A DNA stretch of 64,000 bases from an uncultured Candidatus Saccharibacteria bacterium (GTDB lineage: Bacteria; Patescibacteriota; Minisyncoccia; Phycocordibacterales; PALSA-1337), in contig CAYWKB010000002.1 in the NCBI GenBank assembly GCA_964459225.1, forward strand, positions 2,016-66,015, in the 5' to 3' direction. Within the stretch, counting starts at the first letter, position 1, and each line of letters starts with the position of its first letter. The position numbers and the translations under genes are program-made. Below are positions 6,680-63,797 of the stretch, piece after piece. The notes beneath the pieces were generated by a model. It had not been told where the DNA came from, searched no databases, and worked only from the letters and a program-made list of their open reading frames with translations.

Positions 6680-7513
6680 ATGAAATTTGTATTTTGTGGA
6701 TTTGACTTCTTCATATCAACTTTTGAAACTTTTATTTCTAATGGTTATATTCCTCTTGCAGTATTTTGCCATAAAGTGGATGGTATATATAATTCTTCAT
6801 CAACAATTAAATCACGTTGTAGTGAACTTGGAATTCCTTTTTACGAAAGAAATATGACAGAAGTTGACGTAAACTTTTTTCATACGATGAATTGTGAAAT
6901 AATAATTTCTGCGGCATTTGCATATCGCCTCCCTGCTGAAGCCATAGACAGTGCTGGAATTATGGGTATAAATATACACCCCACAATACTACCGAAAGGT
7001 CGTGGTCCATGGCCACTTCCACATATAATTTTAAAAAGAGAAATAGAAAGTGGAGTTACATTACATAAATTAGCTCATAAATTTGATACAGGAGATATAC
7101 TTCTAACTCGTGAATTTCCACTTTCAAAAAATGAAAATCTTGAATCACTATCATTCAAGGTGCGCAATTGTGCAGTTACTATAATTAAGTTGTTTTTACA
7201 AAATCCCAAGGAAACTTTCAGGAAAGCAATACCTCAATCATCTGGAACATACTGGGCAATGCCCACAGAAGTTGAACGGACGTTAGATTGGAATTTAGAC
7301 GTTGACCACCTTGACCGCATCATAAGAGCTTTTGGTAATTTTGAATCATATGCTTTTTTTGATAACAAAAATTGGCTTGTACAGGATGGAAATGTCTGGC
7401 CAGAAAAACATAGTTATATCCCAGGTACAGTTGTCGAACGCACAAATCGTGAGGTAATGATAGCAGCTAGTGATGGATTTGTTTGTCTACGTAGATTTAA
7501 GGAAGACAAGTAA
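6680..7513 (+). CDS. Formyltransferase-family protein (Fmt/PurN-like N-terminal catalytic domain plus a Fmt-like C-terminal domain)
   Basis: GINIHPTILPKGRGPWP matches the formyltransferase N...H...SLLP..RG catalytic signature, and a downstream Asp (FDTGDIL) fits the third catalytic residue. An AT-rich promoter region lies upstream. Confidence 0.6.
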   Translation: MKFVFCGFDFFISTFETFISNGYIPLAVFCHKVDGIYNSSSTIKSRCSELGIPFYERNMTEVDVNFFHTMNCEIIISAAFAYRLPAEAIDSAGIMGINIHPTILPKGRGPWPLPHIILKREIESGVTLHKLAHKFDTGDILLTREFPLSKNENLESLSFKVRNCAVTIIKLFLQNPKETFRKAIPQSSGTYWAMPTEVERTLDWNLDVDHLDRIIRAFGNFESYAFFDNKNWLVQDGNVWPEKHSYIPGTVVERTNREVMIAASDGFVCLRRFKEDK

Positions 7514-12792: not shown

Positions 12793-12961
12793 TAATCTAA
12801 TTGCGAATCTCCAAGAGGGCTGTCAAAGGCCCTCTTTCTGTTGAATCAACGACTCGCTTATCTACATTTACAAGAGTGCTGTACAAAGGTCATATAGTCT
12901 AGCAATCAACACATACTTGTGTTTTGTGGTATATGGTAAAAGTTGCAGGACATGGCAAGTG

Positions 12962-13033
12962 TGACCCTACAGGGAATCGAACCCTGATTACCGCCTTGAG
13001 AAGGCGATGTCCTAGCCGTTAGACGATAGGGCC
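12962..13033 (-). tRNA. tRNA-Glu (anticodon CUC)
   Basis: Folded by hand as a cloverleaf. Acceptor stem GGCCCTA/TAGGGTC, anticodon stem TCGCC/GGCGG with loop TTCTCAA, T-arm CAGGG-TTCGATT-CCCTG. Its 3' end faces the island. Confidence 0.75.
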
Positions 13034-42706: not shown

Positions 42707-45568
42707 TTACAATACAATATTTATAACTTTATTCTTTATTACTATCACTTTTTTAATCTCTTGTCCACTAATCCATTTTTGTATTTCAGGCTTATTGATA
42801 GCCATATTTTCGACTTCCTTATCATTTAGATCGGGCACAGTTTCCATAGTGCCTCTGACCTTTCCATTTATCTGTATCACCATCTTTACCTTATCTGTTT
42901 TATTGACATTTTCACTAAAATCGGGCCACTTAATCTCATGTATGCTATTTGTATTACCTAACACTTCCCATAATTCTTCTGTTATATGTGGCGCAAAAGG
43001 TGAAAGAAGTTTTATAAATATCTCATAATTTTCTTTTGAAATATTTTTTTGTTTTTCAAATTCATTTAACATTATCATCAAACTACTTATCGCTGTATTG
43101 AATTTCATTTCCTCAATATCATCGCCAACCTTTTTAATTGTTTTATTTAATAGCTCATTAAATGAATTTTCAGAATCTGAATTTATTTTTTCTTTTAATT
43201 TCCAAACTCTTTCCAAAAATCTTCTAGACCCCGCTATAGCATTTGAATCCCAAGCAATTGGTTGATCAAATGGACCCATAAACATTTCATGAACTCTTAA
43301 TGTATCCGCACCCACCTTTTCAATTATTTCGTCTGGATTAACGACATTTCCTTTTGACTTAGACATCTTTTCACCACTACCTGCCAATATAAGCCCATGT
43401 GAGGTGCGTTTTTTGTATGGTTCACTTGTTGGAACAAGCTTAATATCATAAAGGAATTTATGCCAAAATCTTGAGTACAAGAGGTGTAGAGTTGTATGCT
43501 CCATTCCACCGTTATACCAATCAACTTGATTCCAGTATTTTATACTTTCTTCACTGAAAATTCTTTCATCATTATGCGCGTCCATATATCTCAAATAATA
43601 CCAGCTAGATCCTGCCCAATTTGGCATTGTATCTGTTTCCCTTTTTGCATCTCCTCCGCATTTTGGACACTTAGTATTTACCCAATCTGGAATACTAGAT
43701 AATGGAGATTCACCATTATCAGTTGGCTTGTAGTTAGGAACTTCAGGTAACTCTAATGGTAATTCCTTTTCTGGAATTGGGACAATTCCACATCTGTCAC
43801 AGTGAACTACAGGTATAGGCTCTCCCCAATATCTTTGACGAGAAAATATCCAATCACGGAGTTTGAAGTTTGTGACCCATTTACCATTCACAAAACTTGT
43901 AATTTCCTTTTTTATTTCTTCTGAATTTTTACCATCAAATTTATCTGAGTTAATTATTTTACCCTCACCGAAATAACAATAGTTACCAGTAATTAACCTG
44001 TTCCAAAATAAATATAAATATCTTTGATCACCACCGTTTAGTGGGGCGGATTTTATAAAATTTAAAACTTCTTCTTTAGGAATCCATTTTATTTCGTGCT
44101 TAGAGTTTTCATCGGCATTTATTTCATCCTTATCACCATTTTGTAACTCATAATATAGTCCATAACCTTCAATATTCTGATTTCTGTCCTTATGTGGAGC
44201 ATAAAAACTTGAAAAGTATTTTTCACCTAATTGCTTTATAAATTTAATATTTTTGTAACCCGTCTCTTCTTGTATTTCTCTTATCCCACCCATCTCAGGT
44301 GATTCACCCTCTTCTATACCACCTGTTACAAAAGTCTTCCATTTATTTACTTTCCAATCCAAACAAATATATTTATCTTCTGACCAATGTTTTACTATTG
44401 ATATTGCAACCTTCCTATCTACAGTCTTTGCATTATCTCTAATCTTGCATTCATCACTTATATCAATATAGTGTGGTGCAACCACATTTATAATCTCTAG
44501 ACTGTATTTTTTTGCAAAATCCCAATCTCTTTCATCATGTGCTGGCACTGCCATTACTGCTCCAGTACCATATTCAGATAATACATAATCAGCAATCCAA
44601 ATAGGGATTTCTTTATTATTTGCTGGATTAATTGCCTTTATACCCTTCAATTCAATTCCGGTCTTTTCTGATTTTGAATCTGTTCTTTCTATTTCAGTTT
44701 TACTTTTAACTTCTTGTATGTATTTTTTAACTTCATCTAAATTTTTGATTTTATCGCCAAATTCATTTAATATTTTATTTTCTGGAGACAATACCAAATA
44801 GGTTACACCGAATATTGTATCTGGTCTTGTTGTAAAAACTTTTATATTTTTATCGCTATTTAAGATATTGAAAGAAATCTCCGCCCCCTCACTCTTTCCT
44901 ATCCAATTTCTTTGTTGTATTTTTATTTTTTCTAAAAATTCAGTATCATCTAAATCTTTATCCAATCTTTCTGCGTATTTTGTAATTGCCAACATCCACT
45001 GTTCCTTTTCCCTTTTTTCTACTTTTGTACCACATCTTTCACAACATCCATTTACGACTTCTTCATTTGCAAGACCTATTAAGTCTTTTGGACACCAATT
45101 TATTGTCATCTTTTTCTTGTATGCAAGACCTGCTTCTAACATTTTCAAAAATATCCATTGTGTCCATTTATAATATTTCGGATCTGTTGTATTAATTTCT
45201 CTATCCCAATCAAATGAAAAACCTAAAGACTTTAATTGCCTTCTAAATGTATCTGTATTTTGTTTTGTCACTATCTTTGGTGAAATACCAGTCTTAATTG
45301 CATAGTTTTCGGTTGGCAATCCGAAAGCATCCCAACCTATTGGATATAACACATTGTAACCCTCGGCTCTGCGCTTGCGAGATATTATATCCATTGCAGT
45401 ATTGCTCCTTATATGTCCAACATGCAAACCATTTCCTGATGGATATGGGAATTCTATTAGTGAATAGAACTTTTTTTTATTTTTATCCTCAGTTGCTTTA
45501 TTTGGCTTTGTTTCTTCCCATATCTTCTGCCATTTATCCTCTATTTTTTTATGATCATAATTATTCAT
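42707..45568 (-). CDS. leuS: Leucyl-tRNA synthetase carrying an inserted NUDIX hydrolase domain (ORF track start 45631; MNNYDHKK at 45568 is the likely start)
   Basis: HVGH (HIGH), CP1 editing TTRPDT, KMSKS and an anticodon-binding C-terminus. The NUDIX box GGIEEGESPEMGGIREIQEETGY sits at about aa 438-459 of the ORF, within an insertion of about 150 aa (nt about 43990-44434). Confidence 0.9.
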   Translation of the reverse strand: MNNYDHKKIEDKWQKIWEETKPNKATEDKNKKKFYSLIEFPYPSGNGLHVGHIRSNTAMDIISRKRRAEGYNVLYPIGWDAFGLPTENYAIKTGISPKIVTKQNTDTFRRQLKSLGFSFDWDREINTTDPKYYKWTQWIFLKMLEAGLAYKKKMTINWCPKDLIGLANEEVVNGCCERCGTKVEKREKEQWMLAITKYAERLDKDLDDTEFLEKIKIQQRNWIGKSEGAEISFNILNSDKNIKVFTTRPDTIFGVTYLVLSPENKILNEFGDKIKNLDEVKKYIQEVKSKTEIERTDSKSEKTGIELKGIKAINPANNKEIPIWIADYVLSEYGTGAVMAVPAHDERDWDFAKKYSLEIINVVAPHYIDISDECKIRDNAKTVDRKVAISIVKHWSEDKYICLDWKVNKWKTFVTGGIEEGESPEMGGIREIQEETGYKNIKFIKQLGEKYFSSFYAPHKDRNQNIEGYGLYYELQNGDKDEINADENSKHEIKWIPKEEVLNFIKSAPLNGGDQRYLYLFWNRLITGNYCYFGEGKIINSDKFDGKNSEEIKKEITSFVNGKWVTNFKLRDWIFSRQRYWGEPIPVVHCDRCGIVPIPEKELPLELPEVPNYKPTDNGESPLSSIPDWVNTKCPKCGGDAKRETDTMPNWAGSSWYYLRYMDAHNDERIFSEESIKYWNQVDWYNGGMEHTTLHLLYSRFWHKFLYDIKLVPTSEPYKKRTSHGLILAGSGEKMSKSKGNVVNPDEIIEKVGADTLRVHEMFMGPFDQPIAWDSNAIAGSRRFLERVWKLKEKINSDSENSFNELLNKTIKKVGDDIEEMKFNTAISSLMIMLNEFEKQKNISKENYEIFIKLLSPFAPHITEELWEVLGNTNSIHEIKWPDFSENVNKTDKVKMVIQINGKVRGTMETVPDLNDKEVENMAINKPEIQKWISGQEIKKVIVIKNKVINIVL

Positions 45569-45587
45569 GTGTAATGATAATACAATA

Positions 45588-47612
45588 TTATTTATTAATT
45601 GTGAATTTCTTTTTAATTGCAAGTATCTCATCTCTTATGAGGGCTGCGGTTTCAAAGTCTAATTCCTTTACCGCCTCTTCCATCGCCTTTTCTTTTTCTT
45701 TTATAAACTTTTCTGAATTGTTTTTTGCTAACTCCTCATCTATCCTTACCAATTCATTTACGGCTTTATCATGATCGCTACGCAGTTCATCTGTTATATC
45801 CTGTATTTTCTTTATAATTGTCTTTGGAGTAATTCCATTCTTTTTATTATATTCTATTTGTATATTTCTTCTTCTTTCTGTTTCTCTTATTGCATATTCT
45901 AATGTCTCATTCATTTTATCTGCATAAAGTATTACTCTACCATTTATATTTCTTGCTGCACGACCTATTATTTGTATAAGTGATGTTTCAGAACGCAAAA
46001 ATCCTGCTTTATCTGCATCCAGTATTCCAATTAGGGATACTTCTGGTAAATCTAGTCCTTCGCGCAGGAGATTAACTCCAACAAGCACATCGAATTTACC
46101 TTTTCTAAAATCAGTGAGTATTGTTATTCTATCTATTGTCTTTATATCACTATGCAAATATTCTGATTTAATTCCTTTTTCTTTCAAAAATTCACTCAAA
46201 TCTTCCGCCATCTTTTTGGTTAATGTTGTAGCTATTACTCTATCCCCTTTTTTAATTACTTTTTCTGCTTCTTCAATAAAATCAAAAATCTGGCTTTTAT
46301 TTTTACCTTTAACTTCTGCAACTGGATGAACATCTATAACTGGATCAATAAGTCCTGTTGGGCGTATTATTTGCTCAATTATCTGATCACTATTTTCTTT
46401 TTCAAATTTACCTGGTGTTGCTGTAGTGTATATAACTTGATTTACCGCATTTTCAAATTCCTCAAATTTCATAGGTCTATTATCCCTCGCTGATGGAAGT
46501 CTAAAACCAAAATCAATAAGTGTCTTTTTCCTCGATGCATCTCCTGCATACATACCGCCAAGTTGAGGAACTGTAACATGCGATTCATCAATAACAGTCA
46601 AAAAATCTGGTGTACCATCTGCTTTATGTGGAAAATATGACAAAAGTGAATCAGGCGCCTCACCTGCTTTTTTACCTGAAAAATGCCTTGAATAGTTTTC
46701 GATTCCATTACAATATCCAACCTCACGTATTAATGCCAAATCATATTTCACTCTTCTCTTTAATCTTTCTGCCTCCAGATTTTTCCCTTCCTTTTCTAAT
46801 TCTTTTAATCTCTGTTCTAATTCTTTTTTTATACTTTCAAATGCTTTTTTTGATTGTTCTTCTGTACTTATGAAATGTTTTGCAGGAAAAAGAAAAACAC
46901 TTTCATGATCTGCTTTAATATTCATTGTGACAGGATCAAGCTCTATAATATTTGAAATAATATTTCCATCATATTGAATACGATAAACAGTTTTATCATT
47001 CACTGGCATAATCTCAACCATATTTCCTATAGCTCGGAATTGGCCGGCATTTAGATCTGCATTTGTTCTTTCAAAATGAATATCTATAAGTTTTCTAATC
47101 ATTTCATTTCTTGGAATTTCCATTCCTTTTTCAATTTTCAAATTCACCTTTAAATATTCCTCGGGACTTCCAAGACCATAAATACAAGAAACAGATGCAA
47201 CTATTATCACATCTTTCCTTGTTAGTAATGCTTGAGTTGAGGCATGACGTAATCTGTCTATTTCTTCATTTATCATTGCCTCCTTTTCAATATATGTATC
47301 AGTCACTGGCATATATGCCTCAGGTTGATAGTAGTCATAATATGATACAAAATAATGCACGGCATTTTCCTTGAAAAATTCCCTATACTCCTGAGCAAGC
47401 TGTGCAGCGAGAGTTTTGTTATGTGCAATAACTAGAGTGGGTTTACCATGATTTGCAATCACATTTGCCATAGTAAATGTCTTTCCAGATCCGGTAACAC
47501 CAAAAAGGGTTTGTTTTTTGAAACCCTTTTCTAGTCCCGTGGTTAAAGCCTTTATTGCCTTTGGTTGATCCCCTGCCGGACTCATATCCTTTGATAATTT
47601 GAATATAGACAT
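45588..47612 (-). CDS. uvrB: Excinuclease ABC subunit B
   Basis: GVTGSGKTFT Walker A, helicase motifs and a C-terminal UVR domain (DFETAALIRDEI). Confidence 0.95.
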   Translation of the reverse strand: MSIFKLSKDMSPAGDQPKAIKALTTGLEKGFKKQTLFGVTGSGKTFTMANVIANHGKPTLVIAHNKTLAAQLAQEYREFFKENAVHYFVSYYDYYQPEAYMPVTDTYIEKEAMINEEIDRLRHASTQALLTRKDVIIVASVSCIYGLGSPEEYLKVNLKIEKGMEIPRNEMIRKLIDIHFERTNADLNAGQFRAIGNMVEIMPVNDKTVYRIQYDGNIISNIIELDPVTMNIKADHESVFLFPAKHFISTEEQSKKAFESIKKELEQRLKELEKEGKNLEAERLKRRVKYDLALIREVGYCNGIENYSRHFSGKKAGEAPDSLLSYFPHKADGTPDFLTVIDESHVTVPQLGGMYAGDASRKKTLIDFGFRLPSARDNRPMKFEEFENAVNQVIYTTATPGKFEKENSDQIIEQIIRPTGLIDPVIDVHPVAEVKGKNKSQIFDFIEEAEKVIKKGDRVIATTLTKKMAEDLSEFLKEKGIKSEYLHSDIKTIDRITILTDFRKGKFDVLVGVNLLREGLDLPEVSLIGILDADKAGFLRSETSLIQIIGRAARNINGRVILYADKMNETLEYAIRETERRRNIQIEYNKKNGITPKTIIKKIQDITDELRSDHDKAVNELVRIDEELAKNNSEKFIKEKEKAMEEAVKELDFETAALIRDEILAIKKKFTINK

Positions 47613-47662: not shown

Positions 47663-48676
47663 TTATGAGACCTTTCTTAATAAAACCTTTTTGATTGATT
47701 CTTTAATATGCTTTTCACCCATTCCATAATGTTCTAGTAATTCTTGTGGTTTACCTGATTGACCGAATTTGTCTTTTACACCAATAAATTCCATAGGTAC
47801 TGGATAATGTCTTGCTAAACATTCAGATACAGCGGAACCCATTCCTCCTGCTATTTGATGCTCTTCTACAGTAACTATTGCTCCTGCTTCATGTGCTAAT
47901 CTCCATACTGATTCCTCATCTAGTGGTTTAATAGTAGAAAGATTTAACACTTTAATTTTGATTTCATCTTTTAAATCATTTGCAACTTTTAATGCCTTGT
48001 GAACAAGTGCTCCAGTTGCAATAATTCCCACTTGAGGACGAATATCATTTCCTTTATTGTCTTTTGGACTAAATAAAATCTGCGCCTTACCTATTTCAAA
48101 TGGAGTTTCATTTGTTGTTATTATCGGTGTCTTTTCGCGTGCGAGACGAATATATGTTGGATGTTTTGTTTTTGCACATACTATAACTGCTTTTCTTGCC
48201 TCTATAGCATCACATGGAGATATCACTACCATATTTGGTATAACTCTAGTTATGGCAATATCCTCTATTGCTTGATGAGTTCCACCATCAGGACCGACAG
48301 ACACGCCAGCATGTGAACCCGCTATTTTAACAGCTCTATCGTTATAGCAAATTGTCGTTCTAATCTGTTCCCAATTTCTCCCTGGGCTAAACATGGCATA
48401 AGAAGTTATAAAAGGTATTTTACCCATTGCTGCCATACCCGATGCGACACTGGCCATATTTTGCTCAGCCACACCCATTTCAAAAAATCTATTCGGAAAT
48501 TTATCCTTAAATAAATGCATATTTGTAGATTCCAAAAGATCAGCGCAGAGTCCTACAACATTTTTGTCCATTTCACCCGCAATAACTAAACCCTCACCAA
48601 ATCCCTTTCTAATAGGAAATTGTTCAACATCAGTATCAAATATTTTTGGATTTAGTTTTTGATTTGGGTTTAGCAT
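47663..48676 (-). CDS. tkt: Transketolase, C-terminal section (pyrimidine-binding plus C-terminal domain)
   Basis: Split-transketolase arrangement with the N-terminal section immediately upstream. Confidence 0.85.
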   Translation of the reverse strand: MLNPNQKLNPKIFDTDVEQFPIRKGFGEGLVIAGEMDKNVVGLCADLLESTNMHLFKDKFPNRFFEMGVAEQNMASVASGMAAMGKIPFITSYAMFSPGRNWEQIRTTICYNDRAVKIAGSHAGVSVGPDGGTHQAIEDIAITRVIPNMVVISPCDAIEARKAVIVCAKTKHPTYIRLAREKTPIITTNETPFEIGKAQILFSPKDNKGNDIRPQVGIIATGALVHKALKVANDLKDEIKIKVLNLSTIKPLDEESVWRLAHEAGAIVTVEEHQIAGGMGSAVSECLARHYPVPMEFIGVKDKFGQSGKPQELLEHYGMGEKHIKESIKKVLLRKVS

Positions 48677-48677
48677 A

Positions 48678-63658: not shown

Positions 63659-63726
63659 CAACTTTTGGGATTGAAATGGAATCTCAAAGAGCTCGACATA
63701 AGTCGGGCTTTTTCTTTTAAAGTTTG

Positions 63727-63797
63727 CTGCCGGACTTGGAATCGAACCAAAATTTTCGCTTTCAGAGAGCGACGTACTACCATTATACGATCCGGCA
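63727..63797 (-). tRNA. tRNA-Gln (anticodon CUG)
   Basis: Folded by hand. Acceptor TGCCGGA/TCCGGCA, D-stem GTAT/GTAC, anticodon stem TCGCT/AGCGA with loop CTCTGAA, T-arm TTTGG-TTCGATT-CCAAG. Confidence 0.75.

Follow-up and report, generated by a model that had tools for sequence, protein, structure and literature searches.

A NUDIX hydrolase domain nested within the CP1 editing domain of Parcubacteria-type leucyl-tRNA synthetase

Leucyl-tRNA synthetase (LeuRS) is among the best-studied enzymes of translation, and its CP1 editing domain has been treated as a pure guest module. Here we describe a LeuRS in which CP1 is itself a host: in a 64,000-nt stretch of DNA from an uncultured Candidatus Saccharibacteria bacterium (GenBank assembly GCA_964459225.1, contig CAYWKB010000002.1, positions 2,016 to 66,015 of the forward strand; this whole stretch is called the window below), the leuS gene encodes a synthetase with a complete NUDIX hydrolase domain inside CP1. 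The protein has the architecture of canonical bacterial LeuRS (Thermus thermophilus 1h3n/2byt; Escherichia coli 4aq7 family), including the HIGH, KMSKS, T-rich and AHDxxD motifs and the anticodon-binding and C-terminal domains. It differs from the T. thermophilus (Tth) enzyme in having a NUDIX domain of 168 amino acids (aa) instead of a 14-aa loop (Tth 363-376), and in lacking a counterpart of Tth 595-635. Aminoacyl-tRNA synthetases (aaRS) with embedded enzymes are already a known kind. The isoleucyl-tRNA synthetase with an N-acetyltransferase domain (NCBIfam NF040702, ileS_w_GNAT) likewise holds a second enzyme inside a class Ia aaRS polypeptide, while both the synthetase and the guest fold are different ones, and the window protein scores 74.4 bits against that model (cut-off 1999), which limits the comparison to an analogy. 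In a survey of domain insertions, the CP1 family PF13603 was found to be an insertion-only module, with zero cases as host (Protein Sci 2026, PMC13114784). Whereas CP1 is only a guest in that survey, it hosts a NUDIX domain in the window LeuRS and in hundreds of Parcubacteria LeuRS, and the window protein is a counter-example because its NUDIX domain is nested inside PF13603. No description of a LeuRS-NUDIX architecture was found in the open-access papers searched; public databases have carried NUDIX-bearing LeuRS sequences for years, together with a precomputed Pfam match to NUDIX. The window instance is typical of its lineage, and the phenomenon is a surprising one for the aaRS field.

The inserted domain is identified by both profile and motif. 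Pfam NUDIX (PF00293) matches aa 429-527 of the whole protein with 48.7 bits (E 9.7e-13; gathering score 21.1). An earlier interpretation made from the letters alone (the sequence-only reading) had proposed a complete NUDIX fold with a canonical box at 43990-44434, and this was borne out at a level well past chance: that segment scores 53.1 bits against PF00293, and its box, GGIEEGESPEMGGIREIQEETGY, fits the pattern GX5EX7REUXEEXGU exactly and is the sole match in a six-frame translation of the 64-kb window. The same reading had the insertion replacing a short loop of reference LeuRS, which agrees with the alignment to T. thermophilus LeuRS: query residues 384 and 553 correspond to Tth 362 and 377, and about 155-168 aa replace the loop of about 14 aa. 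It chose the right region for the insert, with boundaries slightly too narrow (43976-44479 by alignment to reference LeuRS), and it was mistaken in placing the insert after CP1, ahead of the catalytic core. In the intact protein, PF13603 (185 positions) covers only its positions 1-146 upstream of the insert; after in-silico removal of aa 385-552 the match becomes contiguous over 1-183 of 185. The NUDIX domain is therefore nested in CP1, and CP1 in turn lies within the Rossmann fold, giving a domain inside a domain inside a domain. At the junctions, a CP1 strand runs on into 'VAPHYI' and the chain re-enters CP1 at 'GKII'. Because these flanking strands are continuous with CP1, the NUDIX domain sits on a two-stranded stalk, and it appears to be nested whole in a beta-hairpin loop of CP1. 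The AHDxxD editing motif is only 16 aa away in sequence.

The host is a bona fide bacterial LeuRS and a member of the TIGR00396 family. It scores 1001.8 bits against NCBIfam TIGR00396 leuS_bact (cut-off 548.4), in two stretches with the insert between them, and T. thermophilus LeuRS (1h3n) matches it with an E-value of 6.6e-217. The class I signatures are in place (HIGH as HVGH, aa 70-73; KMSKS, aa 755-759), as are the editing motifs, namely TTRPDT of the T-rich region (aa 267-272) and, within aa 355-369, AHDERD. All four are conserved across 81 homologues, the CP1 motifs being invariant or nearly so, and PF13603 itself scores 214.9 bits. Membership of both LeuRS and the NUDIX superfamily follows from the presence of every defining sequence feature tested.

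Structure prediction agrees with these assignments. Modelled alone with a 40-sequence alignment, the insert reached a pLDDT of 94.7 and a pTM of 0.89 in AlphaFold2 (AF2), with an order of secondary-structure elements that fits the NUDIX alpha/beta/alpha sandwich and fills residues 3-164 of 168. A full-length AF2 model (81 sequences; pLDDT 87.1, pTM 0.75) rendered both CP1 and NUDIX confidently, with the NUDIX blocks at 88-97. Foldseek searches of the Protein Data Bank with the insert returned NUDIX hydrolases at probability 1.0 and a TM-score of about 0.6, the top matches being 2azw, E. coli RppH, the Chlamydia diadenosine tetraphosphate (Ap4A) hydrolase CT771, and the Aquifex and Caenorhabditis elegans Ap4A hydrolases. 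The closest solved fold, 2azw, is a MutT/nudix protein of Enterococcus faecalis deposited as an unannotated structural-genomics entry. By sequence, the closest solved proteins are the Ap4A hydrolases 1f3y and 3i7u, with the lupin Ap4A hydrolase best (E 4.4e-4 with a single sequence, 6.5e-7 with a profile). The best characterised neighbours by sequence and fold are thus enzymes of the RppH, diadenosine polyphosphate (ApnA) and DIPP type (E. coli RppH, the lupin and Aquifex Ap4A hydrolases, Tth Ndx1, Mycobacterium tuberculosis Rv2985, yeast DDP1). All of these act on polyphosphate chains (ApnA, diphosphoinositol phosphates, RNA caps), which is compatible with an Ap4A substrate, while none has the conserved motifs of the window subfamily, and their equivalog cut-offs are far off, so that membership of the RppH or Ap4A-hydrolase subfamily does not follow. 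Those motifs, taken from the subfamily alignment A1, are WxKxxW, HKxxNR (N100 invariant, K97 in at least 90%), FEL and HxxxW, together with an Arg that never varies and lies ahead of the first strand. The domain belongs to an uncharacterised subfamily of the NUDIX superfamily.

The distribution of the insert was examined from both ends. With the NUDIX insert as query, an exhaustive HMMER search of 1.84 billion cluster representatives recovered 431 representatives at E<=1e-3, of which 184 also pass E<=1e-10. A word-indexed homology search had returned 6 proteins, and the extreme rarity that this number suggested was rejected as a sensitivity artefact in view of the HMMER counts. The best 150 representatives comprise 104 LeuRS or LeuRS fragments, 3 prolyl-tRNA synthetases (ProRS), 31 free-standing proteins (up to 215 aa) and 12 others; no recognised host besides LeuRS and ProRS was found among them. 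With the whole LeuRS as query, PF00293 is present in 117 of the 120 best protein matches, whose source names are leucyl-tRNA synthetase, 'class I tRNA ligase family protein' or 'hypothetical protein'; for some genes, the insert pushes automatic annotation to one of the latter two. The full LeuRS also found 526 loci with a relative in GTDB species representatives. Sites were compared in the best 80 of these (50-66% identity to the window LeuRS), and the NUDIX domain occupies the same LeuRS site in 78. The labels of the 80 loci are of Patescibacteria/Parcubacteria type (Paceibacterota, Nomura-, Taylor-, Adler-, Kaiser-, Moran- and Vogelbacteria, Minisyncoccia), and the window's placement among these groups was taken from the labels. 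The window's own 974-aa product occurs identically in three contig records, one from NCBI and two from Logan. Presence at the same site throughout the lineage points to an ancient, inherited insertion, neither a chimera nor a recent event, and the insertion appears to be the old, vertically inherited, normal state of LeuRS in Parcubacteria, a lineage of the Candidate Phyla Radiation (CPR). The sequence-only reading, which had called for a survey of related genomes, judged the arrangement unusual; this stands against model bacteria and fails within Parcubacteria/Patescibacteria, where a second enzyme inside CP1 is the normal state for a whole CPR class. Some of the related contigs from metagenome-assembled genomes (MAGs; among L003-L082) are titled 'uncultured Candidatus Saccharibacteria', 'Gammaproteobacteria', 'Thermodesulfobacteriota' or 'Fimivivens' despite a Parcubacteria-type LeuRS. 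These outlying titles probably reflect generic labelling or mis-binned contigs.

Conservation within the protein is uneven. Orthologues share with the window a mean identity of 69% over the N-terminal core and 59% over the C-terminal part, against 34% over the NUDIX domain; outside its box, the NUDIX domain evolves at roughly twice the rate of the LeuRS core. The catalytic residues are retained throughout: among the 166 copies from the representative search, E15 is kept in 164, E18 in 162, E19 in 166, G0 in 164 and G21 in 163, with R14 kept in 134. One subclade has a variant box, GQT...A(A/M)E, in which E6 is changed to Q and R14 to A or M. An active enzyme under few other constraints would be expected to show just this combination of a fixed catalytic motif and a fast-changing domain, and the pattern argues against a purely structural role. 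The NUDIX domain is real and inherited, and it is probably functional.

Relatives outside LeuRS suggest where the insert came from. Free-standing NUDIX proteins of 160-190 aa (P0001-P0004, P0006, P0020, P0023, P0027, and others) share with it the box, WxKxxW, HKxxNR, FEL, HxxxW and the end strand and helix, and align with it from the 'xPxF' strand to the C-terminal helix, at 30-55% identity to the window in A1; those found by the word-indexed search have 37-42% identity over 85-92% of the insert. They differ from the insert in being separate genes in ordinary neighbourhoods, one of them beside a proB-like kinase and a homoserine dehydrogenase. Since the alignment runs end to end, a complete small enzyme was evidently nested whole, and the insert appears to descend from a free-standing enzyme family with members about 160 aa long. 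In a second group of free-standing proteins, of about 275 aa (P0005, at 131-955 of L001; P0093, P0097, P0112, P0118, P0147), the NUDIX domain is preceded by a degenerate C-terminal half of CP1 ('IPAHIQED') and followed by the CP1 tail ('GEGIMINS...'). P0005 ends at a separate stop codon and is headed by a Shine-Dalgarno-like sequence, and the group looks like an excised unit of CP1 stalk plus NUDIX.

Members of the same NUDIX subfamily also occupy further LeuRS sites: aa ~229-232, after 'LDKDLDxTE' and before the CP1 linker; the first CP1 loop, aa ~257-260; and aa ~651, after 'DWVN', where the zinc knuckle is replaced. NUDIX domains at further sites or in extra copies are found in P0007, P0008, P0010, P0011, P0038, P0040, P0092, P0014, P0022, P0072, P0154, P0030 and P0228. 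Up to three copies occur in one LeuRS (P0007, P0008, P0228), and tandem pairs combine a canonical box with a GQT-variant box. In ProRS, the archaeal-type P0150 (643 aa) has its NUDIX domain at aa 398-515, between the anticodon-binding domain and ProRS-C_1; P0029 and P0059 are further ProRS hosts. The CP1 loop used in the window also receives other material. Two Parcubacteria LeuRS, at L066 (aa ~376-481) and L070 (aa ~396-519), have inserts of 105-125 aa there with no NUDIX similarity and no Pfam match, which suggests that this loop is a general insertion hot spot. In a neighbour-joining tree of the 166 NUDIX copies, those from different sites and free-standing ones are intermixed; its branches are long and come with no support measure, and the tree was not used to argue for repeated transposition.

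Taken together, we lean, by a narrow margin over doubt, towards a whole NUDIX pyrophosphohydrolase whose catalytic site is conserved and which is nested in LeuRS CP1 as an autonomous ApnA/Np4-type hydrolase tethered to the synthetase. Under this proposal, LeuRS aminoacylation and editing would proceed normally, while the NUDIX domain would act as an autonomous Mg2+/Mn2+-dependent hydrolase on its synthetase tether, cleaving a nucleoside-polyphosphate compound, either Ap4A/ApnA or Np4-/polyphosphate RNA 5' ends. Fusion would secure constitutive 1:1 expression and keep the hydrolase near the synthetase, in genomes with minimal regulation. The sequences themselves establish what the domain is, that it lies within CP1, that it is conserved across the lineage and that its catalytic residues are retained; catalytic activity, substrate class and independence from the editing mechanism are what we infer here. 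aaRS form Ap4A as a side product from aminoacyl-adenylate and ATP, a point on which the sequence-only reading had already based its suggestion of a fused Ap4A/NDP-X hydrolase. Given this chemistry, the restriction of recognised hosts to aaRS and the polyphosphate-acting structural neighbours, our best guess for the substrate is ApnA/dinucleoside tetraphosphates (Np4N) or Np4-capped RNA, a guess that we consider tentative. If the domain does hydrolyse Ap4A/Np4N or polyphosphorylated RNA ends, it would hard-wire aminoacyl-adenylate chemistry to alarmone or RNA-cap turnover in organisms with almost no regulatory capacity.

Several observations weigh against this reading. As to substrate, profile matches to solved structures extend little past the NUDIX box, the structural neighbours, RppH/ApnA/DIPP-type enzymes included, share only 12-23% identity with the domain, and the insert scores below the cut-off of every curated NCBIfam NUDIX subfamily, the nearest being the RppH model NF001936 (33.6 vs 118 bits); its free-standing relatives score 20-31 bits against RppH/PRK00714 models with cut-offs of 116-139. 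For these reasons the substrate assignment is weak. As to position, NUDIX domains occur at no fewer than four LeuRS positions and at an unrelated ProRS position, and related LeuRS nest other hydrolases: HAD (PF13419/PF00702) in P0084 (aa 654-808), P0228 (aa ~1000-1155) and about 10 of the 120 nearest, Ser_hydrolase or alpha/beta-hydrolase (PF06821/PF00561) in P0035 (aa 601-766) and about 11 of the 120, and Ham1/ITPase (PF01725) in P0018 (aa 984-1167), with such proteins reaching 1518 aa. Such varied positions and guests argue against a precise geometric coupling to the LeuRS active sites. Finally, some relatives do without the domain. In P0236 and P0259 (71-73% identity overall) the site is occupied by a loop of only some 10 aa and the editing motifs are intact, and P0205 (806 aa) lacks NUDIX while having 91% identity to the window in the N-terminal core, 90% in the C-terminal core and 35% in CP1. 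The NUDIX domain thus appears dispensable for LeuRS as such. The chief rival explanation, possible but held with clearly less conviction than the tethered hydrolase, accounts for the multiple positions and the other guests equally well: a NUDIX enzyme with a general housekeeping task, be it nucleotide sanitation or the turnover of ADP-ribose/NAD or RNA 5' ends, and unconnected to leucylation may, in a tiny CPR genome, simply be carried by an essential, constitutive gene whose product tolerates inserts in its loops. The unrelated hydrolases at other LeuRS sites favour it, as do the one to three NUDIX copies per protein at the at least four sites, the non-NUDIX inserts in the very same loop, the ordinary gene contexts of the free-standing homologues, and the retention of LeuRS motifs by close relatives without the insert. 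Under this explanation, however, any essential protein could have served, and it would not be expected that recognised hosts are only two aaRS (104 LeuRS and 3 ProRS of the top 150); nor does it fit well that the ~275-aa proteins keep CP1 segments on both sides of their NUDIX domain, which suggests that NUDIX and CP1 stalk form a unit. If hitch-hiking is nevertheless the case, the locus would be a clear natural example of reduced genomes packing several enzymes into one essential polypeptide, and the family would provide a natural map of permissive LeuRS insertion sites, useful for protein engineering.

The NUDIX fold could alternatively be non-catalytic, serving as a ligand sensor or as an additional tRNA/RNA-binding surface that modulates editing or aminoacylation. 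NUDIX folds with such roles are known in NrtR, CFIm25 and the C-terminal domain of MutY, and the location in the editing domain, 16 aa from AHDxxD, and the E6->Q and R14->A/M changes in one subclade would suit a regulatory part. We consider this unlikely: the three metal-binding glutamates and both glycines persist in 162-166 of 166 copies even though orthologues share only some 34% identity over the domain, as befits an active site that is being maintained, and the window's own box is fully canonical. Still less probable is a self-protective role, in which hydrolases nested in the synthetase would destroy either non-cognate adenylates or the mimics of aminoacyl-adenylates that act as Trojan-horse aaRS inhibitors. 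To our knowledge, NUDIX enzymes cleave pyrophosphate linkages and not acyl-phosphate, phosphoramidate or sulfamoyl bonds, which counts against such a role, and neither the window nor the syntenic sister locus L083 associates the gene with toxin or antibiotic loci. Indirectly in its favour are the several hydrolase folds nested in the same synthetase, and hydrolases detoxifying peptide-nucleotide aaRS inhibitors are reported from other families (10.1101/2020.03.04.977132). That the insert is an artefact or a selfish element (an assembly chimera, an intein or a recent mobile insertion) has a negligible probability in our estimation and is refuted within the reach of sequence data. The unusual architecture, and nothing else, speaks for it, whereas the product is identical in three independent contig records, other MAGs show the same insertion at 78 of their 80 orthologous loci, and the NUDIX fold takes up the whole insert. 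An intein was rejected separately, as the protein has no Hint/intein Pfam match and the junctions VV|APHYID and GNYC|YFGEG lack splice residues (N-terminal C/S; C-terminal HN then C/S/T). A recent mobile insertion or chimera was rejected as well, with no GC anomaly and no flanking direct repeats.

The NUDIX-less P0205 is encoded at L083, which is syntenic with the window across uvrB, leuS, a sigma-like gene, DUF8128, yceG and onward. At the DNA level (blastn), CP1 and NUDIX form a single block that does not align between the two loci (Table 1), apart from 100 nt around AHDERD. The T-rich editing motif of P0205 is also gone (TTRPDT -> FSAHFEAF). In one of the two sister genomes the CP1 cassette was replaced or has diverged past recognition, and the CP1 of P0205 may represent either a cassette replacement or an editing-defective allele. 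Elsewhere in L083 (2036-2905), a HicB/HicA toxin-antitoxin pair and a 109-aa open reading frame lie between two transketolase genes that are adjacent in the window, near 48669-48677.

Beyond the tethered hydrolase itself, a broader reading is conceivable, and we hold it only as a speculative one: Parcubacteria LeuRS, and to a lesser extent ProRS, may be a platform for nested house-cleaning hydrolases, whose guests are NUDIX domains (one to three of them, over at least four sites) and HAD, alpha/beta-hydrolase and Ham1/ITPase domains. As part of the same idea, and with equal reserve, one NUDIX subfamily would be nested almost exclusively in aaRS and would have shifted from loop to loop and from one synthetase to another, leaving again as the free-standing CP1-stalk-plus-NUDIX protein. 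If true, this would imply either a CPR-specific, aaRS-centred complex for nucleotide sanitation or alarmone control, or an undescribed route of in-frame domain mobility, of which the CP1 cassette replacement between sister genomes would be one visible step.

The coordinates of the locus are collected in Table 1. The 974-aa open reading frame of the sequence-only reading exists as an open frame (42707..45631, minus strand), and the conserved start shortens the protein to 953 aa. The longer frame has 21 additional N-terminal codons (window 45569-45631, upstream of M22) and would overlap the 3' end of uvrB (45588..47612), whereas the coding sequence started at M22 (MNNYDHKK...) begins 19 nt past the uvrB stop. 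We adopted the latter because homologues and the database entry P0157 (953 aa, a copy of the window protein) begin at M22.

Table 1. Features of the leuS locus in the window; residue numbers are those of the 974-aa frame, in which the conserved start is M22.
Feature	Position	Strand	Details
Leucyl-tRNA synthetase coding sequence	42707..45568	(-)	953 aa + stop, start M22; from open reading frame, TIGR00396 and homologue starts
N-terminal half of Rossmann-fold catalytic domain	44912..45568	(-)	aa 22-240; HVGH at 45413-45424; PF00133 + PF09334
CP1 editing domain, part a	44480..44911	(-)	aa 241-384; PF13603 positions 1-146 at aa 241-390
Motifs of CP1 part a	44816-44833; 44525-44569	(-)	TTRPDT; GTGAVMAVPAHDERD
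Nested NUDIX hydrolase domain	43976..44479	(-)	aa 385-552, 168 aa; N-terminal strand 'APHYID' to C-terminal helix '...LFWNRLITGNYC'
NUDIX box, catalytic and metal-binding motif	44255..44323	(-)	aa 437-459; GGIEEGESPEMGGIREIQEETGY
Subfamily-specific motif HKDRNQ (HKxxNR), 3' of box	44177..44194	(-)	alignment A1
CP1 editing domain, part b	43892..43975	(-)	aa 553-580, 'YFGEGKIINSDKFDGKN...'; completes CP1 fold past insert; Tth 377 onward
C-terminal catalytic half, anticodon-binding domain and C-terminal domain	42710..43891	(-)	KMSKS at 43355-43369
Stretch unaligned to L083 at DNA level (blastn)	43874..44885	(-)	aa ~249-586 = CP1 + NUDIX; flanks 80-84% identity; L083 counterpart 6684-7254

Two minor observations concern the remainder of the sequence. 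Tth 595-635, which has no counterpart in the window LeuRS, is the leucine-specific domain region: query 754 aligns with Tth 636 and query 765 joins Tth 594 (window ~43340-43370, around KMSKS). The only RNA genes detected in the window are tRNA-Glu(CTC) at 12961-13033 and tRNA-Gln(CTG) at 63726-63797.

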